Shown here in pieces: positions 10,648 to 42,108 of a stretch of 42,368 nt of DNA (position 1 is the first letter of the stretch; the number at the start of each line of letters is the position of its first letter). The DNA is from Candidatus Hydrothermarchaeales archaeon (GTDB lineage: Archaea > Hydrothermarchaeota > Hydrothermarchaeia > Hydrothermarchaeales > SZUA-236), in assembly GCA_046761145.1 (NCBI GenBank), contig JBHIFP010000002.1:1-42368 (forward strand), read 5' to 3'. The position numbers and the translations under genes were made by a program. The notes under the pieces were generated by a model, which was not told the origin of the DNA, searched no databases, and saw nothing but the letters and a program-made list of their open reading frames with translations.

Positions 10648-11361
10648 ATGGCAGAGCGCGAGATAAGCATCGTCGGGATATTGGACGCATTGAAGAAGAA
10701 ATTCAAAAAGATAGCGATCATCCTTGTAATCGGTTTTGGGGTCTCGTGGTTCATCGCGGAGTACATAATAAGGCAGGTCAAAAATGACCTATTGGGTGGT
10801 TTAGAAGGCGCGGAGTTGATCGCAACAAGTCCCATAGAGTACGTTTTGGTCCAGATAGAGATAGCATTGGTCCTAGCGATATTCTTTGCCTTGCCCGTAA
10901 TGGTCTACTGGGTATTGAAGAGATACAGGAGGAGGATCCATGGAAAAACCTTATCGATTCTCATATGGTGTGCCGCGGCGGTCGTCTTATTCCTCATAGG
11001 GTTTGGATTCACATATTTCCTAATCCTTCCCAAAGCAATTTGGATACTTACCGTCCTCGTGACAAATGCGGACATCGCGCCTTATTATTCCGTCAGTTCT
11101 TTCATGACTTTCACGTTGTTATCGATCGTAGTCTTCAGCATAGTCTTCGAGTTGCCCCTCGTCGTTACGTGGCTTTCCATCAATGGCCTCGTATCTGTGG
11201 ATACGCTCAAAGCAAGGAGGAAACACGTGATCGTCGCCATCTTTATCATCACCGGTATAATAACGCCGGACCCCACGCCATTCAGCCAACTCCTGTTGTC
11301 CGTCCCATTGATACTCTTGTATGAGGCCAGCATCATATCCGCAAAGATGTTCACGAAGTGA
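10648..11361 (+). CDS. tatC: Twin-arginine translocase subunit TatC
   Basis: Six hydrophobic segments, TSPIEY, FELP, IITPDPTPFSQ..LLYE; upstream of tatA genes. Confidence 0.93.
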   Translation: MAEREISIVGILDALKKKFKKIAIILVIGFGVSWFIAEYIIRQVKNDLLGGLEGAELIATSPIEYVLVQIEIALVLAIFFALPVMVYWVLKRYRRRIHGKTLSILIWCAAAVVLFLIGFGFTYFLILPKAIWILTVLVTNADIAPYYSVSSFMTFTLLSIVVFSIVFELPLVVTWLSINGLVSVDTLKARRKHVIVAIFIITGIITPDPTPFSQLLLSVPLILLYEASIISAKMFTK

Positions 11362-11560
11362 ACTACCACCCTTTGAAAAGGGTGGCTTCCTGTTTCAACG
11401 GCGTTCCCAACGGAAGGCCTCCGACAGGCATCAAATCGGGCCGTTCCAGCCCTACAGACTTAAGCCCACGCAGCAAGATGTTCACGGCGGCGTTAACGTC
11501 CCTGTCGAGGACGAGCCCGCAGCCGCACCTGTGGACCCTCGTGGATAATGACTTTGGCAC
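11358..11560 (-). ncRNA. Predicted omegaRNA/reRNA scaffold overlapping the tnpB 3' end; the guide would be read from flanking DNA below 11358
   Basis: Established TnpB architecture plus the right-end hairpin seen here; the 5' boundary is a guess. Confidence 0.5.
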
Positions 11561-12538
11561 ACGGGCACCGCAGCGACAGCAGAGCTGAGAGGTGCCGTTG
11601 CAGTCGACGATGGATACCCAAGTCCCAGCCTCCTCCGCTTTGAACCTGGTGAAGGTTATGAGGGCAGACCAGCCTGCATCCTGGATGGATTTGGCCAGGC
11701 GGCTTTGCATCATCCCCCCGATGTTGAGGTCCTCGAAGGCTATGAGGTCGTAGCTATCGACGAGCTTTCTGGAGAGCTTGTGCAGGAAGTCCGAACGCTG
11801 GTTTCTTACCTTTCTGTAGACCCTGGCGATCTTCAATTTTTGCCTCCTTCGGTTGTTGGAGCCCTTCTTCTTTTTTGACAACCTCCTCTGCTCCTTGGCG
11901 AGTTTCTCCTCAGATTTCCTGAGGTACTTGGGCGGGGCGATGGCCTCTCCTGTGCTCAGGGTAACGAGTTCTTTCAGGCCTAGGTCAACGCCGATGGCAG
12001 AGGCTATTTCCTCCTTGGCCTTCCTGGGCACGTCGGGAAGCTCAACGGAGAAGCAGGCGTACCAGTGGTCGGCATCCCTGCGAAGGGTGCAGGTCCTCAC
12101 CTCGCCCTCTATGGGTCTGTGGAGCTTGATGTTGACTTCGCCTATCTTGGAGAGGCGGAGTTTTTTGCCCACGATGGCAAATCCAAATTGCGGGTAGGTG
12201 AAGCTATCATACCTACCTCGGCCCCTGAATCTCGGGTGGCCGGGCTTCCCTCCATTCTTGACCCTGCGGAAGAAGTTTTGGAAGGCCTTGTCGACCCTCC
12301 TTAAGACATCCTGCAACACCTGGGAGTGGACCTCTTGCAGGCGTGGGTCGGATTCCTTCTGCGAGGGCAGGACCACCGCCTGTTCGTGATAGCTCACAGA
12401 ACGCCTCTCCTCCTTCCAGGCTGCTCTGCGCTCGGCCAGGGAGTTGTTGTAGAGGATGCGGCAGGTCTCAAGGGTCTGCTCCAATTTAGCTCTCTGCCCC
12501 CTATTCGGATACAGGCGGAATTTGAAGGCCTTTCTCAT
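11363..12538 (-). CDS. tnpB: RNA-guided endonuclease TnpB
   Basis: KAFKFRLYPN, YNNSLAER, SQVLQ, PRFR, RuvC GVDLG / AFEDL / DRDVNAA, Zn finger CCRC...CGC; true start ATG 12538 (391 aa). Confidence 0.96.
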   Translation of the reverse strand: MRKAFKFRLYPNRGQRAKLEQTLETCRILYNNSLAERRAAWKEERRSVSYHEQAVVLPSQKESDPRLQEVHSQVLQDVLRRVDKAFQNFFRRVKNGGKPGHPRFRGRGRYDSFTYPQFGFAIVGKKLRLSKIGEVNIKLHRPIEGEVRTCTLRRDADHWYACFSVELPDVPRKAKEEIASAIGVDLGLKELVTLSTGEAIAPPKYLRKSEEKLAKEQRRLSKKKKGSNNRRRQKLKIARVYRKVRNQRSDFLHKLSRKLVDSYDLIAFEDLNIGGMMQSRLAKSIQDAGWSALITFTRFKAEEAGTWVSIVDCNGTSQLCCRCGARVPKSLSTRVHRCGCGLVLDRDVNAAVNILLRGLKSVGLERPDLMPVGGLPLGTPLKQEATLFKGW

Positions 12539-12653
12539 GTTACTATTTCTCTTCTCAGGGGGACATATGTATTGTCCTAGAGCGCAGGAAAAGTATTGCG
12601 GCTGTATCCCCTTCCATGAAGGGAGGGGTTTTGACCGTGAGCCGATTAATAAA

Positions 12654-12671
12654 GGACGAAAAATATATAAG
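12654..12671 (+). promoter_or_regulatory. BRE/TATA promoter of the tatA pair
   Basis: GGACGAAAAATATATAAG about 45 bp upstream of tatA; GGAGGTG RBS at 12700-12706. Confidence 0.55.
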
Positions 12672-12715
12672 AGACAAATCAAAATGTGTTCCAAAAAATG
12701 GAGGTGTAGAAGAAG

Positions 12716-12988
12716 ATGATTTCGTTGATGGTACTGGGTCAACCAGAGCTCTTGATTATCCTTTTCATAATCCTGATACTCTTCGGAAGTTCGAAGTTAC
12801 CAGAGCTCGCTAGATCGATGGGCAGGGCAAAGAGCGAATTCAAGAAAGGTATGGAGGAGGACACAGAAGAAGAGAAGAAGAAGCTGGAAGCGCAGAAGGT
12901 CGAGGCCGCGCCAGAAGCTCCAGCACCAGCTCCCGAAGCGCCCACCACACCACCTGAAGAACCACCCGCTACACCGAAGGAAGAATAG
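12716..12988 (+). CDS. tatA: Tat translocase TatA
   Basis: LGQPELLIILFIILILFGSSKLPELARSMGRAKSEFKKG, acidic/Pro tail. Confidence 0.93.
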   Translation: MISLMVLGQPELLIILFIILILFGSSKLPELARSMGRAKSEFKKGMEEDTEEEKKKLEAQKVEAAPEAPAPAPEAPTTPPEEPPATPKEE

Positions 12989-12996
12989 GTGAGGAT

Positions 12997-13425
12997 ATGG
13001 CACTCGGTGGGCCCGAGGTGGCGGTCATCGTCATTATCGGGCTTTTGCTTTTTGGACCAAAGAAATTACCAGAGTTGGCGAGGGCAGTAGGCCGAGCAGT
13101 AGGGGAATATCAGAAGGCGGTAAGGGAATTCGAGAACGAAGCCGATAAGGTCAGGAAGGACGTCCTTGAAGAGAAACCCCAACCATCCGCGATCACGCCA
13201 TCGAGAACGAAGACTTCGGGGCCCTCCCCACAGTTGAAGAAGATCGCCAAAAATTTGGGGATTGATCCAGCAGGTAAATCCGAGGCCCAACTCTTGGCCG
13301 AGATCAATCGGAAAACCAAGCTGGCAGAGAAGAAATTGGCGGAGAAAGAGTCCGCCAAAACTCCCAGTAAAGAGAAAGAAACCGGATCGAAGACGGAAGC
13401 AATGGAATCGGCTTCTAAGACCTGA
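12997..13425 (+). CDS. tatA: Tat translocase TatA/TatB-family paralogue
   Basis: LGGPE...LLFGPKKLPELARAVGRAVGEY; C-terminal IAKNLGIDPAGKSEAQL. Confidence 0.88.
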   Translation: MALGGPEVAVIVIIGLLLFGPKKLPELARAVGRAVGEYQKAVREFENEADKVRKDVLEEKPQPSAITPSRTKTSGPSPQLKKIAKNLGIDPAGKSEAQLLAEINRKTKLAEKKLAEKESAKTPSKEKETGSKTEAMESASKT

Positions 13426-24546: not shown

Positions 24547-25350
24547 ATGGATTTGGTCTTTCTGGGTTCTGGTGGCGGTAGATGGGTGACTTTGACTCAA
24601 AGGATGAGAACAGGGGGATTTAGGATCCACGATAACGAGAATATCCACGTAGACCCGGGCCCCGGTGCATTGATAGCTATGCATGAGGAGAGGATCGACC
24701 CTCTAAAGACTGATGCCGTTTTCGTAACGCACTGCCATCCGGATCACTACAACGATGCGGAGATATTGATAGAAGCGATGACTGGGGGAGCGACGAGGAA
24801 GAGGGGGGCCTTGGCCGGAAGCGGAAGTGTCCTCGTTGGTAGCGATACTTTGGGGCCCGCAATCTCCAAATATCACCAGTCGAAGGTCCTAGAGAGATGT
24901 GTATTGAAGCTAGGTCAAAAGGTCGAGGTTGGCGATGTAACCATCGAAGCCCTCCCCACCAAGCACTCCGATCCGAGCACGGTAGGTCTCAAATTTTATA
25001 CCGATGCCGGCACTATAACGTACTCCTCGGATACCGAATATTTTGACGGTTTGTTGGAGGAGTACAGAGATTCGCAGATATTGGTCCTGAATACGATGCG
25101 GCCAGCTAGCAATAGGATACCCTGGCACCTATGTACGGATGATGCAATAACCATATTGAAGGAGGTTAGACCAAAACTGGCGATCTTGAACCACTTTGGG
25201 ATGAAGATGCTGGGCATTAGATATAAGGAGACCAAAAGGGTTGAAGAGGAAAGCGGAGTAAAAACCTTGCCGGCCGATGACGGAATGCGGTTGAATATCT
25301 CAGATATCTTGGAAGGGGTTAGCAGGGAAAAAGGTTTCAGAAAACTTTGA
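24547..25350 (+). CDS. Metallo-beta-lactamase-fold hydrolase
   Basis: FLGSGGGR, VDPGPG, THCHPDH, YSSDT, NHFG. Confidence 0.9.
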   Translation: MDLVFLGSGGGRWVTLTQRMRTGGFRIHDNENIHVDPGPGALIAMHEERIDPLKTDAVFVTHCHPDHYNDAEILIEAMTGGATRKRGALAGSGSVLVGSDTLGPAISKYHQSKVLERCVLKLGQKVEVGDVTIEALPTKHSDPSTVGLKFYTDAGTITYSSDTEYFDGLLEEYRDSQILVLNTMRPASNRIPWHLCTDDAITILKEVRPKLAILNHFGMKMLGIRYKETKRVEEESGVKTLPADDGMRLNISDILEGVSREKGFRKL

Positions 25351-25485
25351 ATACGTTTTAGTTATAGTAGCCCTACCGTAAATTCGATATTTGGTTGATG
25401 CTCTGAAACCACCGTCAGATTTTTAAATAATTTTGACGGATGATACCATGACTACTCGTCATGAGTCTAAAACAACAGTGAAAGT

Positions 25486-28152
25486 ATGATGCCAAGAGAT
25501 TATGACCCGAAAATATCAGAGCCGAAGTGGCAGAAGTTTTGGGAAGATAGAGGAGTGTATAGATTCGATCCCAATAGCGATAAGCCCATCTACAGCGTAG
25601 ATACCCCGCCCCCCACCGTCTCCGGTGGTATGCATCTCGGGCACGCCTTCTCGTATTCCCACGCTGACTTTATAATCAGATTCTGGAGGATGATGGGCTA
25701 CAACGTCTTCTATCCCTTCGGTTTTGACGACAACGGCTTGGCAACGGAGAGGTTCGTCGAAAATAAGTGCAACGTCAGGGCGGTAGATATGCCCAGAAAA
25801 GAGTTCGTGGAGCTCTGTTTGAAGGAGACCGAAGAGTTGGAGGAGGAGATGAAGAAGTCGTGGTCTTCATTGGGCATTTCACCGGACTGGAGCATAAACT
25901 ATAGAACCATAGACGATTGGGTACAGAAGACGAGCCAAAGATCCTTCATCGAACTCTACAAGATGGGTAGGGAATACAGGAAGAAGGCCCCGACCATATG
26001 GTGCCCGACGTGTAGGACCGCCATCGCCCAAGTTGAGCTAGAGGATAGAAGGCTGAGTTCCTATTTCAGCGACATCTATTTTGAACTGGAGGATGGGAAG
26101 AAGATAATCATAGCGACCACAAGACCCGAGTTGTTGCCATCTTGTGTCTCCATCTTCGTCCATCCCGAAGACGAGCGATATAAAGATTTGATCGGGAAGA
26201 AAGCCAAGGTTCCGTTGTTCGGTCAAAAGGTTCTCATCATAGCGGATGAGAGGGTCGACCCCGAGAAAGGAACCGGAATTGTGATGTGCTGTACGTTTGG
26301 AGATTTGACCGACATAGAGTGGTGGCACGCCTATAAACTTCCCCTCAAAATCTCCATAACAAAGGATGGAAGGTTGAACGAGCTGGCGGGAAGATATCAA
26401 GACCTCACCCTAAAAGAAGCTCGAGAAGCGATCGTCGAGGACCTAAAGGCCAACAACCTACTCATAAAGCAGGAGAAGATCACCCACGATGTCAACGTTC
26501 ACGAGAGGTGTGGAACCGAGATAGAATTTCTGGTAACGAAGCAGTGGTTCATCAGGTATCTGGACATGAAAGATGAGTTCATAGAGGCCGGAAAGGAGAT
26601 TAACTGGCATCCGGAGCACATGAGGGCAAGATATGACAACTGGGTAAAGGGTTTGCAATGGGATTGGTGCATCTCCCGCCAGAGGTACTATGGCATTCCC
26701 TTCCCGGTGTGGTACTGTAAAAAATGTGGGGGGGTGATGCTGCCCGACGACGAGGACTTGCCGGTGGACCCCCTACAAGATAAACCGAAAAGGCCGTGCA
26801 GATGTGGTTCTATGGAGTTCGAGGGGGAGAAGGACGTCTTAGATACATGGGCAACTTCCTCTTTAACTCCTCAAATACCCCTGAAGTGGAGAGAGGATGA
26901 CGATTTTTTCGACAAGATGTATCCCATGAGCCTTAGACCCCAAGCCCACGATATCATCACCTTCTGGGCCTTCAACACGGTCGTCAAGAGCTTGCTCCAC
27001 GAAAAGAAGATCCCTTGGACCGACATCATGATCTCGGGTCATGCATTGGACCCGCACGGCAAAAAGATGTCCAAATCAAAAGGCAACATAATCGATCCAG
27101 ATTATGTGATAGGCAAATATTCTGCGGACTGTTTGAGGCTTTGGGCCGCCAAGTCCAAGTTGGGGGAAGACCTGCCATCTCAAGAGAAAGATTGGCAGAC
27201 CGCTGGGAAGTTCATAACCAAGCTCTGGAATGCCTCCAAGTTCGCCATCTCCCATTTGGGAGATTACGACGGTGAAAGAGCAAGACTCAACGCCGTCGAT
27301 AGATGGATCCTCTCAAAACTCCAGAAGGTCATAAAAGAATCCACCGACTTATTCAAAGGCTATGAATATTCGCAAGCCGTAAAGCTCATAAAGCACTTCT
27401 TCTGGCACGATGTCTGCGATAACTATCTAGAAGTGTGCAAGCACCGGCTATACAATCCCGAGATTTATGGAGAAGATGCGAGGAAGGCGGCTCAGTATAC
27501 CCTCTACAGTCTGATCTTAAACTCTCTCAAAATGATGGCCCCCATCATACCCCACATAACAGAGGAGCTTTATCAGATGTACTTCGTAAAACAGGAGAAA
27601 GAGACGAGCATCCACATCTCTCCATGGCCCAGACCCAATGAAAGTTTGATAGATGAAGAAGCGGAACGGCGAGGAGAGCTTGTGATAGACCTAATCTCGC
27701 GGATCAGGCGGTATAAAGCCGGGATCGGGATCCCGTTGAACTACGAACTCGGTAATGTTGGTATCTACGCCGCAAACGAAGTTGCCTCTTTCTTAAAAGA
27801 GGAAAAGGGGACTATAGAAGGTGCCATGAGGATAGGGAAACTTGAGATCTTGACCGGTGCTTTAGATGCAGAAGAGCACGTCCTAGAGATCGTCCCGGAC
27901 TTCTCGACCATAGGCCCCGAGTTCAAGGGAGATACAAGGAAGATCATCGCATTCTTGGAGTCTTGCGATAAAGACAACTTTGCAAAAGAGCTCGGAACCG
28001 CCGGCGAGGTAATCGTTGATAAAGATCATAAGATACTCCCCTGCCACATCAAAAACATCAAGAAAGAAGTCACGAGTGAAGGCAAAAAGGTAGATATCCT
28101 AGAGGTTCCTGAGCAACCCGATATCTCCATTGTGGTGATAAAACCAGATTGA
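25486..28152 (+). CDS. valS: Valine--tRNA ligase, archaeal type
   Basis: DTPPPTVSG, HLGH, IATTRPE, DWCISRQR, DTWATSS, KMSKS. Confidence 0.96.
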   Translation: MMPRDYDPKISEPKWQKFWEDRGVYRFDPNSDKPIYSVDTPPPTVSGGMHLGHAFSYSHADFIIRFWRMMGYNVFYPFGFDDNGLATERFVENKCNVRAVDMPRKEFVELCLKETEELEEEMKKSWSSLGISPDWSINYRTIDDWVQKTSQRSFIELYKMGREYRKKAPTIWCPTCRTAIAQVELEDRRLSSYFSDIYFELEDGKKIIIATTRPELLPSCVSIFVHPEDERYKDLIGKKAKVPLFGQKVLIIADERVDPEKGTGIVMCCTFGDLTDIEWWHAYKLPLKISITKDGRLNELAGRYQDLTLKEAREAIVEDLKANNLLIKQEKITHDVNVHERCGTEIEFLVTKQWFIRYLDMKDEFIEAGKEINWHPEHMRARYDNWVKGLQWDWCISRQRYYGIPFPVWYCKKCGGVMLPDDEDLPVDPLQDKPKRPCRCGSMEFEGEKDVLDTWATSSLTPQIPLKWREDDDFFDKMYPMSLRPQAHDIITFWAFNTVVKSLLHEKKIPWTDIMISGHALDPHGKKMSKSKGNIIDPDYVIGKYSADCLRLWAAKSKLGEDLPSQEKDWQTAGKFITKLWNASKFAISHLGDYDGERARLNAVDRWILSKLQKVIKESTDLFKGYEYSQAVKLIKHFFWHDVCDNYLEVCKHRLYNPEIYGEDARKAAQYTLYSLILNSLKMMAPIIPHITEELYQMYFVKQEKETSIHISPWPRPNESLIDEEAERRGELVIDLISRIRRYKAGIGIPLNYELGNVGIYAANEVASFLKEEKGTIEGAMRIGKLEILTGALDAEEHVLEIVPDFSTIGPEFKGDTRKIIAFLESCDKDNFAKELGTAGEVIVDKDHKILPCHIKNIKKEVTSEGKKVDILEVPEQPDISIVVIKPD

Positions 28153-34896: not shown

Positions 34897-34972
34897 TCGT
34901 TCCTTCGGATAATTTTAAATAGTTTTTACATCCAAAGAATAACCATAACAAGACATTGAATTGGGTGATCAT

Positions 34973-35245
34973 ATGAAGAAGAAGATCAAAGGTGAAGTAG
35001 CGGAAAAGTTGGAGAGATATATTCAAGCTACGAGCCAGTACGCTACCCTCGCCGGCGTGAGGAAGGAGAGGATGAACAAATTCATGGACCTCGTCGCCAA
35101 ATCAAAAGGTGGAGCACTGAGCCAAGGGGAAGTGATCTCGGCATTGTACAACATCGTCGAGGTAGATGGGAGGATATTCGAGGTTCTGGATAAATCGAAC
35201 GACGTATTGTTCGAGACCGTAAAATTGGTCTCCGGAGTGGAGTAA
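34973..35245 (+). CDS. Small helical hypothetical protein, first gene of the ATPase operon
   Basis: GGTGA RBS then ATG 34973; ends 4 bp before the ATPase; TTTAAATA at 34914-34921. Confidence 0.7.
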
Positions 35246-35249
35246 GTCC

Positions 35250-36884
35250 ATGAAAGAGAAGTCTAAGTCAGAGGAGATAAGCCCTCTGATGAGGGATGAA
35301 TTGGCACGCGCTGAGGAGAAGCCCAAAGTAGTTGCGCCCAAGGCAGAAGCGGAAATAAAAGTAGAAGAGGGAGTTGGAGCCGTAGCGGTGAGACCCACGG
35401 GGGAATACGAGGTTATAGACTCCTACAAAGTCGGAGACAATGATGTCCAGATAATAACGACCAAAACCCAAGTGTCCCCTACCTATTGCGTCTTATTACC
35501 CGAGTTAAAGGTAGAAGACCATAAAAAGATCAAGGAATTCGTCGATACGATATTGAAGGAATCTAGATTAGATCCGGCCACAATTCTGGACCCAGAAGAA
35601 AGGAAACGCATATTCTCCAGAGAAATCAGAAAGATAATAAAAGATCACGAGCCTACATTACCCGAAAAGAAACTCAAGATTTACTCTGAATACATCCTCA
35701 TGGATATGATTGGGTATGGTCTATTAGATCCTCTTCTATCGGATGATCTACTGGAAGAGGTAATGTTACTTGGGATGGACAAGAGGGTCTATATAGCTCA
35801 TAGAAAACATGGGATGTGTAGCACAAATATAATATTCCACGATGAGGAATTGGCGGAGAATATAATCCAGAGAATGGCTAGGGGCGTGGGCAGAAAGATC
35901 GATACAATGAATCCATTACTAGATGCAAGACTAGCCGATGGCAGTAGGGTCAATGCAACTATCCCTCCAGTAACCACCGATGGTGCTACTTTGACTATCA
36001 GGAAGTTCAGAGAAGACGCGCTTACGGTTGTAGATCTTCTGAATTTCAAGACATTTTCGGTAGATTTTGCAGCGTGGCTCTGGGTCGTTATCGATGGATT
36101 GGGAATAAAGCCGGGCAATGCAATAGTTGCAGGAGGAACTGGTTCCGGGAAGACCACAACATTGAATTCTTTGGCGACGTTCATACCAGAACGCGATAGG
36201 GTCCTGACTATAGAGGATACCCTAGAATTGCAGTTGAAGCCTCATGAGCATTGGATCAGAATGGAGACCAGACCACCGAATGTCGAGGGCAGAGGGGAAG
36301 TGACGATGAACGACCTAGTTGTGAATACTTTGAGGATGAGGCCGGACAGGATAATCTTGGGAGAGGTCAGGGGGCCAGAGGCAGCTACTTTATTCACAGC
36401 GATGAATACTGGACACGATGGATGCATGGGGACTCTACACGCCAATGATGCAAGGGAAACTATAACGAGGCTTACAAATCCCCCAATGAATGTACCTCTG
36501 ATCATGATTCCGGCATTGGATTTAATAATTATGCAAAATAGGTTCAAACACCCGGAGAGGGGTACATTGCGCAGAATAACCGAAGTCGCTGAAATCGCGG
36601 GGATGGAAGGCGACGTAGTGCAACTGAATAGGGTCTTTGAATACAACCCTCAGACGGACGTATTGGAGGAAACTGGAACTCCGAGTCGCATACTACAGGA
36701 TATAGGAGAGCGCTCTGCTAGGTCCGGAAAAGAGATAAATATGGAGATAGCCAAGAGGGCGATGTGCTTGAAATGGATGCAAGACAGCAATATAAGAGCC
36801 CTGACCGATGTCAAAGAGGTCATCCTCACATTTAACAGGGATCCAGATGGGTTTACAGAATCGATTACCGCAGGGGGAATGTAA
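35250..36884 (+). CDS. Type II/IV secretion / pilus assembly ATPase (ArlI/CpaF/VirB11 family)
   Basis: [14 protein letters not shown], Walker [45 protein letters not shown]. Confidence 0.93.
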
Positions 36885-37696
36885 TGGCCGAACAAGCGTT
36901 TATTGTGGATTTGGGGAAGAATGTTGATCTGGATGAAGCTTCGAAGAAGATAGATTATATATCGCCTCCAAAGATGGTGGGGATGTTCAAGGCGGCCGAT
37001 GCCAATTTCGATGGCACAACGGTGCGAATATTCGAGAACGGCTGGATAAGGGTCATGGTCAGAACCGAACTCGAGGCTTATGTAGAGGCCATGTTCAAAG
37101 CGACAGAAAGCCTCGTATATATAAGGAAGGTTGTGACAGATTTGAGATCCGAGCTGGGCATGGATCTGGACTCTGATCGTGTCTTGGCCAGCATCAAACC
37201 CGTCTCGGAAAAACTGAACCTCCATGAAATTTTGGTCATGGATGTTGATTCTGTCCGTCCGACGTATAAGAAGGACATGAATCCCATCTTCTACAGGATG
37301 CTCCACCTCTATATGCTAGAGGAGTATATCGGGGCAGCGACAGCCATCAAAATTTTGTACAATACGGGCGAAGAGGTCGGGAAAGTATTTGCGGGTATAT
37401 ATGCAACAGATACTCTGGAGAGTTTCCTGGACGAATTGAGGAACTTCTTGGATAGGGAGAAAGTGGCAAAAATCAGCGTCGAAAGGATGAACGAAGATGA
37501 GATCGTTATCAAGAGCGAAGAGTCCATGACCTCTTCTGGCATCCCGAGCATAAATAAGCCCGTATGCCACTTCGAGAGGGGACTTATAACGGGGGCTGTA
37601 AAAGAGTTCTTGGGTAAGAATATCCGTTCGGACGAGACGAAGTGTTGGGGCCTAGGAGACCTGTACTGCGAATTTGTCCTCAAGGTGGAGAGTTAA
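36884..37696 (+). CDS. V4R-domain protein with N-terminal TBP-like extension
   Basis: C-terminal V4R: KPVCHFERGLITG...ETKCWGLGDLYCEF; TAATG overlap with the ATPase. Confidence 0.8.
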   Translation: MAEQAFIVDLGKNVDLDEASKKIDYISPPKMVGMFKAADANFDGTTVRIFENGWIRVMVRTELEAYVEAMFKATESLVYIRKVVTDLRSELGMDLDSDRVLASIKPVSEKLNLHEILVMDVDSVRPTYKKDMNPIFYRMLHLYMLEEYIGAATAIKILYNTGEEVGKVFAGIYATDTLESFLDELRNFLDREKVAKISVERMNEDEIVIKSEESMTSSGIPSINKPVCHFERGLITGAVKEFLGKNIRSDETKCWGLGDLYCEFVLKVES

Positions 37697-38559
37697 TGGC
37701 CGTGGTATATGACCAGTCCCACGGGGAACCAAAACTGGAGGAGTATTATTCCAGCTTCAGCCGAAGCATGACGTCCCGTGGGTATAGGGTGGATGTACTC
37801 AACGCGAAGCCATTGAATTTGGATGAACTGAAAGGGTACAAAGTGCTCATGATATCCTTCCCACAGAAAAAATTTTCGGATGAAGAGATAAAGGGGATCA
37901 TCAACTTTGTCGGAGATGGAGGGGGACTATTTGTGGTTGGCGAAGAGGGGAACTGGGGGGGCTTTAAGGAGATACTGAACAGCTTATCAAAAGAGTTCGG
38001 GATCACCTTCAACGACGACGAGGTTCACGACCCCACAGACAGCGTTGGAGAATCGTATTCCGTTATACATACAATGAAGGAACACCCGGTGCTAAATGAG
38101 GTCGAAAAATTCGTTATATATGGGGGCTGCTCCCTGAATGTCAGCGGCGATGCAGAGGCGATAGCCACGGGAGATGACGATACCTTCTCCACAAAAGATT
38201 ATTACAAGGCCGGGGATTACCCCCCAGTACTGGCAGTCTCCGAATATCTGGATGGGCGGGTGCTCTGCATCGGCGATGGAAGCCTCTTCAGGAATAGGTT
38301 TATCAACGAGTTTTACAACAAGCAACTTGCTTTGAACATAATAGAATGGCTTTCAAGGGGCAAAAAAGCGGGTGCGGAAGCTGAGGAGTACACCAAGGAA
38401 GATATATTGAACGAGATCGATGAAATAGAGAAGAAGTACACACAGCTGAGAGACGATTATTCCGAGGGGAAGATAAACGAAGATGAATACCGGGGGAAGA
38501 TAGCGGAGTACGGCGAGAGACTGGAAGAATTGGAGAAGATGCTGGCGGAACTAGAGTGA
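37696..38559 (+). CDS. GIFT (GldG/IFT52/DUF4350-like) domain protein with helical C-terminal tail
   Basis: YDQSHGE, FPQKKFSDEEI..I.NFV..GGGLFVVGE, LNSL...FGITFNDD, HPV, GRVLCIGD..LF.N, N..L..N...WL; TAATG overlap gives start 37696. Confidence 0.8.
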   Translation: MAVVYDQSHGEPKLEEYYSSFSRSMTSRGYRVDVLNAKPLNLDELKGYKVLMISFPQKKFSDEEIKGIINFVGDGGGLFVVGEEGNWGGFKEILNSLSKEFGITFNDDEVHDPTDSVGESYSVIHTMKEHPVLNEVEKFVIYGGCSLNVSGDAEAIATGDDDTFSTKDYYKAGDYPPVLAVSEYLDGRVLCIGDGSLFRNRFINEFYNKQLALNIIEWLSRGKKAGAEAEEYTKEDILNEIDEIEKKYTQLRDDYSEGKINEDEYRGKIAEYGERLEELEKMLAELE

Positions 38560-38832: not shown

Positions 38833-40863
38833 ATGAATCCGAAGAAACGTCATAAGGGGGGTGCATATCTCAAAAAAATCATTGCATTCATCATAATCAC
38901 TGTTATCCTCATCGCCAATTCCAACACGATTCATGCATCTCCCCAGAATCACGTCTGGGTCGATTTTGCGGGAATTTGGCAAATCGATGCCGATTCGAAC
39001 GAGATCGAGAGTGGAGAGTATACGGCAATCAAGTATTTTAGATTTGGCTTTCATAACTCCCCCGATGATTCGAGGGAAATGGTCAAAGAGATCAGACTCA
39101 TTTTTAGACCAGCTGAAGGTGTGAAGATCGAAGATGCCGATGCCTATCCAAACCTCAAGTTTCAATCGACCGATCCATATATAATAGTCTGTAAAAATCT
39201 AGAAGAATTTGATGGCTGTGGAATGAATTTTCGAACGAATATCGAGGAAAAGATCAAACTTCCATTTTCGATCAAAAGAGAAGCAGATTTCACGTACTTT
39301 GAAACCGTCGGAACCCAGATAATGACGATCAGACTAATCCCGGAATCGAGTTTTGTCGGTGCAGATGTGGGTATAGAGGCACGGTCTACTCCCGATGCAG
39401 ATGTCGAGGTTTTGTCCACGTCGATGAAATACAATCCCGAGGTGAGGGAAAACCGCGTTGATTTCCATCTAGATAACCTCCAGGCGGGGAAAGAGTACAT
39501 ATTCAAGGTCGAACTTCAGATCACGCCAAAAAAAGGAAAGGTGTCCTTTCTCCCTCAATTCAATGTCAATATTTACGAAGCTAGCAAAAGGGCCGATGAT
39601 ATAACTCCCAAAAGTGTATCTGTGAAAACCAAGTTCGGGGCTTCAGAAGCGATATCGTCAGAAGAACTAGCTTTCGATGCGGCAAAAAGAGGAGGTTTTT
39701 CTGTAAATTTTCGTCAAATATCCATGCCCACCAAAATTCTGGTGGAAAGGCCCACCGTTGCTCCAGAACCAGTCGTAGAACCTTTGGAAGCTACTCCAGC
39801 GCCAACCGGAGAACCGACACGAGTTACACAACCCCCGACGTTAGCGCCTCGGGAGGAGGTGGTCGACGGCGATGGCGATGGGTGGAGCGACGAGCTGGAG
39901 AAGAGGATAGGAACCAATCCATTTAACAAGGATACTGATGGCGACGGAGTTATAGACTCAGAAGATCCAAACCCATTGAAATTCGGGGCAGAGAGGGGGG
40001 TAGATTCAGACGGCGATGGATGGAGCGACGAGCTGGAGAAAAAGGCCGGGACCAATCCATTTAACAAGGATACAGATGGCGATGGGTTATGGGATTCTAA
40101 GGATCCAAACCCACTGGCGCCAGAAGGAGAGAAGAAAGAAATCGACTGGGAACAAGTTGGTGTCGTCCTTGTGGTTATGGGTGCTGGAGTTGGATGGTTC
40201 TTGTCGCGAAGAAAGCGGAGTCGCGTAAAGAAACTGTTGGACAATATCGACGAAACATATGCCAGTTTCAAGATGAATGCACGGAGATGCGAGGCAGAGC
40301 TCTACAGACACAGAGACATCGCCTTGGATCACCTCAAGAGAGGCAAGATAGATGATCAAAGCTACGCCATCTTGGACAAGCGAATAGACGATTACTTGGG
40401 TGAAATAAGAGAGCGGATCATGGAGGAGAGATTTGGAGAAGTCCCTGCTCGACTTAAGGACGAGGTCCGTCGAATGCTTCAAGATGGAGAGATAAGCGAG
40501 GACGAGTTCGAGGCATTTGAAAACATTTTAGGGAAATCGAAGGGGATCGGCAGGAAAGAGAAATCGGACCTGAGGGAACTCTTTGGAAAGTGGAAAGAGG
40601 AGGACAAGATAAGCAGTTATTCCGTCCTCGACAAATACGTCGACGAGTACCTCAGGGATATCGGCAAGGTGAAGGGCACAATATCCGGTGAAGAACTCAA
40701 AGTAGAGATAGATAAAATCCTAGAGGACAGGGTGGTCACCCAGGAGGAGTTTGAGGAGTTCTCCGAGATGTTGGAGAGATCTGATTTGAGCGAAGGAGAG
40801 AAAGAGAGGTTGAAGAAGAAGTTGAAGAAGATAAGGGACTTGACCAGTGGACCGAAAAGTTAG
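38833..40863 (+). CDS. Single-pass membrane protein: extracellular beta domain, P/T linker, two Ca-binding TSP3-like repeats, TM helix, cytoplasmic helical tail
   Basis: Signal-like KKIIAFIIITVILIA; DGDGWSDELE..GTNP.NKDTDGDG twice; TM VGVVLVVMGAGVGWFL then RRKRSR; start uncertain. Confidence 0.78.
   Translation: MNPKKRHKGGAYLKKIIAFIIITVILIANSNTIHASPQNHVWVDFAGIWQIDADSNEIESGEYTAIKYFRFGFHNSPDDSREMVKEIRLIFRPAEGVKIEDADAYPNLKFQSTDPYIIVCKNLEEFDGCGMNFRTNIEEKIKLPFSIKREADFTYFETVGTQIMTIRLIPESSFVGADVGIEARSTPDADVEVLSTSMKYNPEVRENRVDFHLDNLQAGKEYIFKVELQITPKKGKVSFLPQFNVNIYEASKRADDITPKSVSVKTKFGASEAISSEELAFDAAKRGGFSVNFRQISMPTKILVERPTVAPEPVVEPLEATPAPTGEPTRVTQPPTLAPREEVVDGDGDGWSDELEKRIGTNPFNKDTDGDGVIDSEDPNPLKFGAERGVDSDGDGWSDELEKKAGTNPFNKDTDGDGLWDSKDPNPLAPEGEKKEIDWEQVGVVLVVMGAGVGWFLSRRKRSRVKKLLDNIDETYASFKMNARRCEAELYRHRDIALDHLKRGKIDDQSYAILDKRIDDYLGEIRERIMEERFGEVPARLKDEVRRMLQDGEISEDEFEAFENILGKSKGIGRKEKSDLRELFGKWKEEDKISSYSVLDKYVDEYLRDIGKVKGTISGEELKVEIDKILEDRVVTQEEFEEFSEMLERSDLSEGEKERLKKKLKKIRDLTSGPKS
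39862..40116 (+). repeat. Intragenic tandem duplication, 138-bp period
   Basis: 39862-39978 and 40000-40116 share TGGAGCGACGAGCTGGAGAA and ACCAATCCATTTAACAAGGATAC exactly. Confidence 0.9.
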
Positions 40864-41904: not shown

Positions 41905-42108
41905 TTACTTCTGTCCTGGTGGACATTTTGGTTTCATCTGATGGTGCGGGCACTTGGACATCGCGCCTGGCGACTTCGCCATCGCAAGCGGGCATTGGCC
42001 AGCCGGATTATTGTTGTTGGTGTCAGCCAAGACCGGAGCAGTTCCAACGGCTACGAATGCCAGCCCCAAGACCAACAGTACGACCAAAACGATCGCCGAT
42101 CTCTTCAT
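41905..42108 (-). CDS. Small secreted protein with three Cys-Pro motifs
   Basis: Signal peptide ..APVLA; QCPL, KCPHH, KCPP; RBS GGAGGTGA. Confidence 0.7.
   Translation of the reverse strand: MKRSAIVLVVLLVLGLAFVAVGTAPVLADTNNNNPAGQCPLAMAKSPGAMSKCPHHQMKPKCPPGQK

Follow-up and report, generated by a model that had tools for sequence, protein, structure and literature searches.

The window analysed here is a stretch of 42,368 nucleotides from contig JBHIFP010000002.1 of assembly GCA_046761145.1 (contig C2 of a 1.63-Mb, 133-contig metagenome-assembled genome (MAG) of the Hydrothermarchaeales, 96.7% complete and designated G000 in our analysis). It contains four genes on the plus strand, at positions 34973-38559 and here called g1 to g4, that encode proteins of 90, 544, 270 and 287 residues. 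g2 is a pilus-type ATPase, g3 joins a domain with the fold of the TATA-binding protein (TBP) to a V4R sensor domain, and g4 carries a GIFT domain. We tentatively propose that g1-g4 form a cytoplasmic regulatory module, specific to the lineage and gated by a sensor, whose core is an accessory and platform-less member of the type IV filament (T4F) ATPase paralogues, a reading that seems quite possible, if still short of probable. The module is read as sensor-gated because the platform-less ATPases and the TBP-fold/V4R family are each found beside genes for KaiC-like ATPases or two-component systems; these two independent lines are coupled directly in one Hydrothermarchaeales family. In our reading, the module is part of a wider and undescribed habit, in which pilus-type ATPases are wired to signalling proteins.

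The four genes are closely packed. The sole intergenic gap, of 76 nucleotides, follows the preceding ACT/DUF5612 gene and holds a candidate TATA-like box, TTTTAAATA (34913-34921, plus strand), approx. 52 nucleotides before the ATG of g1 at 34973; this ATG is itself preceded by GGTGAT, 4 nucleotides upstream. g1 and g2 are spaced by 4 bp, and two TAATG stop/start overlaps join g2 to g3 (36882-36886) and g3 to g4 (37694-37698), each with a Shine-Dalgarno-like purine-rich run ahead of it. This arrangement, read directly from the DNA, is the one described in an earlier note on this stretch, which had also considered the four proteins to be cytoplasmic and free of transmembrane segments; consistently, their Kyte-Doolittle profiles (19-residue windows) never exceed 1.5, while that of the membrane protein encoded downstream reaches 2.17. 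The pilus-type ATPase, V4R and GIFT assignments of the same note were borne out by Pfam and NCBIfam matches, those of Pfam being above their cut-offs, and so was its statement that the locus has no platform or pilin gene: the window has no match to the platform family T2SSF, the only two of the genome being on contig C5, and g1-g4 have no hydrophobic segment that could belong to a pilin with a class III signal peptide. Likewise, no KaiC-like gene (PF06745) was detected in the window, the nine matches of the genome being all on other contigs, and the archaellum neighbours arlJ, arlH and archaellin were not found beside g2, since the window has neither a T2SSF nor a KaiC match. The possibility of a defence system was rejected because the PADLOC anti-phage models recognised no system; g2 gave a weak P-loop match (mad8, E 1.4e-5) and the other proteins none.

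The ATPase g2 (35250..36884, plus strand) matches PF00437 with an E-value of 1.6e-46 and 159.1 bits, well above the gathering cut-off of 24.9, and is therefore a member of the T2SSE family (CpaF/GspE2/FlaI-like); its N-terminus is a low-complexity extension of approx. 60 residues. The closest solved structures are those of CpaF (279 bits), the GspE protein of A. fulgidus (2OAP, 259 bits, nearly full length) and FlaI (188 bits). The residues that we take to be the Walker A, Asp-box, Walker B and His-box motifs are present, and they are invariant in 15 paralogue sequences (alignment A4). The catalytic core of g2 is the same as that of CpaF/TadA and A. fulgidus GspE; these are encoded with, and act on, a TadB/C-type platform, whereas g2 is encoded apart from any platform. 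It also differs from ArlI/FlaI, since it scores 305.6 bits against the NCBIfam FlaI/ArlI equivalog NF058587, whose cut-off is 550. A possible analogy is offered by the bacterial proteins PilT and PilU, accessory ATPases encoded away from the PilC platform that they share with the assembly ATPase PilB; however, g2 belongs to a different clade, given that PilT-type ATPases match it with only approx. 50 bits (46-52) and that the NCBIfam pilT_fam model gives 63.9 bits against 319.

Matches to g2 with E-values of 1e-30 or lower occur in 36 of the 38 genomes of the phylum, with 2-10 in each and nearly all of them 44-60% identical. A sample of these matches was used to build a tree of 77 rows by an IQ-TREE quick search (LG+G4), with support given only by the Shimodaira-Hasegawa-like approximate likelihood ratio test (SH-aLRT) and with no ArlI, Aap, Ups, Epd or arCOG references; segments shorter than 330 residues were dropped, except for four partial rows that were added (G002:C272, G003:C5, G012:C249 and G021:C102). 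In this tree, g2 forms a clade with G002:C272, G003:C5 and G001:C65 (100% SH-aLRT) that nests in a group of 22 rows (SH-aLRT 87) holding no platform-linked row. The sister clade has 11 rows, and a gene for a KaiC-like ATPase (PF06745, approx. 253-269 residues) adjoins the ATPase gene in eight of its nine annotated loci, the exception being G036:C156; G021:C102 and G017:C47 are left out of this count. These loci usually add a second, large KaiC/DUF7504 protein, which in three of them bears TPR repeats, and in G013:C43 hisF is adjacent too, as it is in the window. In the next clade, of 7 rows, the ATPase gene comes directly after genes for a protoglobin/PAS sensor, a GAF-histidine kinase and a receiver in all four annotated loci. 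No T2SSF gene lies within three open reading frames (ORFs) on either side of the ATPase in the 13 annotated signalling-linked loci. The earlier note had presented the missing platform as an oddity of this locus; the absence is real here, but it is a trait of platform-less T2SSE paralogues that are located among signalling genes and form a phylum-wide group. A further ATPase clade likewise has KaiC-like genes as neighbours (G001:C160, G004:C70 and G003:C186). As a separate observation, the loci L189-L192 (G028:C11, G029:C1, G014:C8 and G031:C80) are sensor-kinase-receiver-ATPase operons with a platform-less T2SSE ATPase, often with overlapping genes, that resemble a two-component system with a pilus-type ATPase as its last gene.

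That KaiC-like ATPases are found near archaeal type IV pilus (T4P) loci is already known (Makarova et al. 2016, PMC4858521, main text). The present module resembles ArlI-ArlH and these KaiC-linked loci in pairing a hexameric T2SSE-type ATPase with a regulatory partner in the cytoplasm, and in the KaiC-like neighbours of the sister clade and of the g3 family. It differs from both in that the locus has no ArlJ/TadC, pilin or KaiC-like gene, and in its partners, one with the TBP-fold/V4R architecture and the other with a GIFT domain, to neither of which the main text of that paper refers.

The genes for a filament machinery, which the earlier note had suggested to look for elsewhere in the genome, have matches or candidates on other contigs. 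Apart from g2, T2SSE matches occur at three places, on C5, C49 and C15, the last one weak. At C5:20817-26082, a single ORF of 1070 residues comprises two complete T2SSE ATPase units, and the next two genes are TadC-like (C5:24016-25164 and 25171-26082); the latter correspond to the T2SSF matches of the genome (C5:24652-25821), which therefore has one TadC-like platform locus. Two prepilin peptidase matches are located on C31 and C95, and a heuristic scan, whose 59 matches are mostly unspecific, pointed to pilin-like class III signal peptides on C43 (e.g., C43:446-907), C47 and C61. Platform-linked fused double ATPases fall in two separate clades of the tree, with support of 100 and 99; the fused arrangement, in open frames of approx. 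990-1190 residues, recurs across the phylum, and its two halves fall in separate clades of the tree. The genome has a second platform-less ATPase at C49:637-2016 (minus strand), of 459 residues, which falls with seven other rows in a deep clade of its own. It is located among unrelated genes, between one for a small membrane protein and two unannotated ORFs.

It could be argued that g2 is no longer part of pilus biology and makes up, with the GIFT protein and the V4R protein, a cytoplasmic signalling or remodelling ATPase, interchangeable with KaiC-like ATPases, that never contacts the TadC platform. This would agree with the lack of a platform gene at the 13 signalling-linked loci and in the window, with the consistent embedding of the paralogues among KaiC-like and two-component genes, and with the pairing of the g3 family with KaiC-like ATPases elsewhere. 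On the other hand, g2 is 50-56% identical (about 52%) to the platform-linked paralogues over approx. 470 residues, the N-terminal domain included, and a platform is present in every near-complete genome with such ATPases (20 of the 21 near-complete genomes of the phylum have both, and G010 has neither). In addition, we know of no precedent for a T2SSE ATPase that works without a membrane platform, and a machine of this kind is considered unlikely. The degree of identity with the platform-linked copies and the presence of a platform in those genomes are also the reasons why an output on the C5 platform is favoured in the mechanism proposed below.

The second line of evidence comes from g3. Its N-terminal domain (residues 1-112; 36884..37219, plus strand) was modelled as a single TBP fold in AlphaFold model m0810151b3f4e, with the secondary-structure order beta-alpha-beta4-alpha; the predicted local distance difference test score (pLDDT) is 60-93 for the block of this domain and 69 for the whole model. 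A comparison with 48,161 chains using VIA-align was led by TBP from yeast, human and Sulfolobus (Z 10.9, 10.6 and 10.6, with a root-mean-square deviation of 2.5 A over 89-92 residues), followed in fourth place by a TBP-containing Pol III fusion chain with Z 8.6, the best chain other than TBP that matches this domain having a Z of 7.3. Foldseek also matched the g3 model to TBP chains, with E-values from 1.7e-3 to 3e-3. No match to TBP was found at the sequence level, either in Pfam (PF00352, E-values up to 10) or in a profile search of the sequences of the PDB. The earlier description of this half of g3 as TBP-like therefore stands as a statement on fold and fails as one on sequence similarity, because TBPs are the top fold matches and no similarity in sequence accompanies them.

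The C-terminal half of g3 (residues approx. 115-270; 37226..37696, plus strand) is a V4R sensor domain, with an E-value of 6.3e-19 and 68.3 bits against PF02830, whose cut-off is 31. Its fold matches are the sensor domains of MopR, PoxR and DmpR, H-NOX, and the TRAPP component Bet3. Residues C228, E251, C254 and C262 align with the Cys/Glu cluster of PoxR and MopR, where it binds zinc. This Cys-Glu-Cys-Cys cluster is invariant in 19 members of the g3 family, and PMC5847659 describes the Cys cluster as a shared one. Thus g3 resembles MsvR and PoxR/MopR/DmpR in having the same Cys/Glu cluster in a V4R domain located C-terminal to an output domain, and it differs from them in that its output domain is a TBP fold instead of a helix-turn-helix (HTH) or a sigma-54 AAA+ module; no match to an HTH family was found for g3 in Pfam. 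The best NCBIfam match of the V4R half is the MsvR equivalog NF053755, with 72.5 bits, below the cut-off of 220.

These features raise the question of whether g3 could be a ligand- or redox-responsive transcription factor, whose single TBP-fold domain would dimerise to bind DNA as a TBP-like saddle, by analogy with MsvR (HTH plus V4R), and regulate this operon or genes elsewhere with no contact to the ATPase. True TBPs are the top fold matches, MsvR is the best family match of the V4R half, and V4R paralogues within the Hydrothermarchaeales carry DNA-binding domains, as seen in the HTH-V4R architecture of five out of six annotated genes. Moreover, PMC3597702 reports single TBP-domain proteins in archaea. 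The same source also indicates that the TBP fold binds proteins, as in COPG and the AP appendages, and the AP-2 and AP-4 appendages are among the fold matches of g3. The lack of sequence similarity to TBP also speaks against such a role, and translational coupling on both sides to genes that are not regulators would be unusual for a repressor. The net charge of the N-terminal domain is -1 to -5 in five members of the Hydrothermarchaeales type and ranges from -11 to +6 across the 19 members, so that the domain is not consistently basic, which is weak evidence against DNA binding. Taken together, a transcription factor is an unlikely explanation for g3. When a complex of the ATPase and g3 was predicted from alignments A4 and A2, respectively, the score was 0.00; the prediction was run without controls and weighs neither for nor against binding.

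A profile search with g3 among 1.84 billion representative sequences returned 906 proteins with E-values of 0.001 or lower, most of them matching the V4R part alone; among the best 150, approx. 14 are full-length (254-268 residues), and the named ones come from DPANN/Diapherotrites MAGs. In a set of 401 genomes, full-length matches were found in 3 Hydrothermarchaeales genomes, of one family, and in 13 small genomes of other phyla. These DPANN-like genomes, of 0.6-1.2 Mb, have 14 loci of the g3 type, and in ten of them a gene for a single-domain KaiC-like ATPase lies immediately upstream on the same strand; in three of the other four a receiver gene is adjacent. No T2SSE or GIFT homologue was detected by tblastn within 8 kb of any of the 14 loci. 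If g3 were a transcription factor, the g3-type protein of these loci would be the DNA-binding output of the KaiC-like ATPase. Around these clusters of KaiC-like ATPase and TBP-fold/V4R genes (L122-L135), there are often genes for further KaiC/DUF7504 paralogues, PAS proteins, receivers and histidine kinases. L122 also has a true TBP gene, divergent from the KaiC-like gene beside it, which was seen in this one locus of the 14 and is probably due to chance. Other V4R proteins of similar length (239-282 residues), from other Hydrothermarchaeales families, were rejected as orthologues of g3, given that five of the six annotated are HTH-V4R proteins, i.e., MsvR-like; the sixth, in L014, has no Pfam match at E-values of 1e-5 or lower.

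Conservation in relatives is the third element of the argument. The order ATPase-V4R-GIFT is kept in the three contigs of relatives where it can be read, at 52-80% protein identity: G003:C5 and the metagenome locus L024 have the three genes, and G002:C272 has the ATPase and V4R genes and then ends. The earlier note had named the loss of this order in every relative as evidence against a module, and the order is conserved. Homologue clusters number 8 for g3 besides itself (52-80% identity, all of 270-274 residues), 13 for g4 besides itself (40-70%) and 5 for g1 (75-78%, all of 90 residues). In four more cases, a g3 and a g4 homologue come from contigs that agree in length and source (3144, 3822, 14166 and 16648 nucleotides), and one g1 and one g3 homologue share a contig of 7298 nucleotides; such coincidence of length and source suggests further cases of the module. 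When the contigs of the genomes were scanned with the g3 protein alone no related locus was detected, and with alignment A2 just the G002 and G003 contigs were recovered. A scan of metagenomes with the GIFT alignment gave seven loci, with the module in L024 alone; one of the others, L025, is a fragment of 1266 nucleotides. The module is confined to one Hydrothermarchaeales family.

This distribution could also reflect a fortuitous adjacency, or a decaying remnant, of genes that are functionally unrelated. Unrelated housekeeping genes flank the module, its restriction to one family would fit such a view, and so would the G001 locus described below, where the ATPase has neither partner. Against it stand the maintenance of the gene order at the divergence just mentioned, the start/stop overlaps, intact in this genome, and the family alignments of g4 and g3, in which all frames are intact and between 60 and 80 columns are invariant. 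We regard a chance association as very improbable.

Several observations weigh against the proposed module. Regarding its composition, g1 appears in close relatives only, given that it was not found in the other 37 of the 38 genomes of the phylum, so that of the four-gene unit originally described the ATPase-V4R-GIFT part is conserved and g1 is a narrower feature; the G002 and G003 contigs break inside the ATPase gene, and hence the absence of g1 from these two is not established. In G001, a genome of the same family, the orthologous ATPase gene is followed directly by a TrkA-type channel gene, the one that comes after the GIFT gene in G003, with no V4R or GIFT gene, which indicates that the presence of the ATPase does not require them. 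Outside the lineage, the GIFT protein is not linked to ATPases, as the six loci L025-L030, whose GIFT proteins are distant relatives, have no ATPase or V4R match. With respect to the phylogeny, the sister relation to the KaiC-linked clade has 83% SH-aLRT in a quick search without bootstrap, and of the three orthologue rows two cover just the C-terminal part (43-46% of the columns). As for the g3 family, its association with KaiC-like genes is observed in another phylum alone, at 20-30% identity. All four sequencing runs that hold more than 90% of the words are DNA from hydrothermal-vent metagenomes of one study, three of them possibly the source, and no RNA run was listed. Finally, binding among the four proteins is inferred from gene coupling and conserved order only, and the link between g2 and the C5 platform from co-occurrence and not from contact.

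The fourth gene encodes a protein with two parts. Residues 1-225 (37696..38370, plus strand) form a cytoplasmic GIFT/DUF4350 domain that matches IFT52_GIFT (PF23355, E 3.6e-13), ABC_transp_aux (PF09822, E 4.4e-10) and DUF4350 (PF14258, E 2e-9). The first of these matches has 49.6 bits against a cut-off of 27.2 and covers just profile positions 14-108 of 246; the last has 38.4 bits against 30.4 and covers positions 9-180 of 181. The Atlas model of g4 aligns with GIFT/DUF4350 clusters with TM values of 0.69-0.79, and 60 columns are invariant across 14 homologues. The C-terminal tail (residues approx. 232-287; 38389..38559, plus strand) is helical or coiled-coil, has a putative SHOCT-like motif and is kept in 14 of 14 homologues; its approx. 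55 residues give a weak match to the SHOCT-like family DUF1707, below the cut-off (E 0.041, 14.3 bits), and weak matches to coiled-coil families. By Pfam and predicted structure, g4 has the same domain as GldG and the N-terminal domains of IFT52 and OST48. GldG-type proteins are membrane-anchored partners of ABC transporters; unlike these GIFT/DUF4350 proteins, g4 is small, cytoplasmic and stand-alone, has a tail that looks suited to oligomerisation, and is coupled to an ATPase operon.

The first gene (34973..35245, plus strand) encodes a 90-residue protein with no known family, predicted to be an antiparallel two-helix hairpin (helices 8-45 and 51-87, with a pLDDT of 87 in two of five models). 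No match was found in Pfam, NCBIfam or PADLOC, and the fold search gave none at E-values of 0.001 or lower; the weaker rows are generic helical hairpins, and no weight was given to one of them, the type III secretion ATPase stalk protein CdsO (E 0.47).

If g1-g4 do form a sensor-gated module, its operation could be envisaged as follows. The V4R domain would be the input, binding a small ligand or sensing the redox state, and its Cys/Glu cluster would hold a metal in a structural role. Docking of g3 on the ATPase hexamer would fall to the TBP-fold domain, which would thereby gate either ATP turnover or partner choice; the GIFT protein might oligomerise through its helical tail and scaffold the complex, and the g1 hairpin could be a further small subunit. 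With less weight, the output may fall on the single TadC-like platform of C5, where g2 would take turns with the fused double ATPase or compete against it; the sensed signal would thereby change the assembly or disassembly of the pilus, or the choice of pilin. A broader formulation, which we regard as rather doubtful, is that this T4F-ATPase branch consists in Hydrothermarchaeota of cytoplasmic signal-transduction engines, fed by KaiC-like ATPases, by two-component systems or by a TBP-fold/V4R sensor, and that the TBP-fold/V4R protein is a general adaptor for hexameric ATPases, KaiC-like in the DPANN-like archaea and of the T2SSE type here.

The combination had not been recognised as a described system, and this agrees with the literature consulted. 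In the main text of the census PMC13705601, the terms V4R, GIFT, DUF4350, orphan, solo and Hydrothermarchae are absent; the main text of PMC4858521 does not mention V4R, orphan or GldG, and PMC3597702 mentions neither V4R nor KaiC. Literature searches returned no text on a T2SSE ATPase coupled to V4R, GIFT or TBP-fold proteins (the supplements of the censuses may list such neighbours), none on platform-less T2SSE ATPases ending two-component operons, and none on the pairing of a KaiC-like ATPase with a TBP-fold/V4R protein, which an mBio 2017 paper on KaiC-like signalling hubs may list. Catalogues of archaeal T4F systems are built on loci with ATPase, platform and pilin, and platform-less ATPases among signalling genes escape such censuses.

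If the broader formulation holds, archaea would have a sensor-controlled second pilus motor, possibly the missing ATPase for retraction or switching, or a filament-independent ATPase switch. Should these ATPases be signal-gated second motors for a shared platform, they would be candidates for pilus switching or retraction without PilT, with defined and testable partners; PMC13705601 notes that archaea have no known retraction ATPase. Should they work without a platform, the secretion-ATPase fold would have been put to a new use. The TBP-fold/V4R family is in turn a predicted second component for the KaiC-like ATPases of the DPANN-like archaea, and the main text of PMC4858521 notes that the second component is mostly missing for archaeal KaiC-like systems.

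Downstream of g4, positions 38833-40863 (plus strand) encode a membrane protein of 676 residues. It starts with a hydrophobic segment and has a pair of bacterial TSP3 (calcium-binding) repeats and a second transmembrane segment. Its cytoplasmic tail has repeated SHOCT-like motifs that resemble the tail of g4, and a contact with g4 may be conceivable. Compared with L024, this gene is inserted between the GIFT gene and hisF. It was considered as a fifth gene of the module (g5) and rejected, as it has its own AT-rich upstream gap of 270 nucleotides and as the GIFT gene is followed directly by hisF in L024 and by the TrkA-type channel gene in G003.

Two further features of the window were noted. 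An IS605-family OrfB/TnpB-like gene (11363-12742, minus strand), with OrfB_IS605, Cas12f1-like TNB and HTH_OrfB_IS605 domains, sits between tatC (10648-11361) and a tatA-like gene (12997-13425). On the other side, a small ORF of 67 residues at 41905-42108 (minus strand) and one of 66 residues at C8:30439-30639 (minus strand) have identical first 34 residues, consisting of a signal-like N-terminus followed by a run of Asn; the former lies near the end of the window's contig, so that this may be a repeat at which the assembly breaks.

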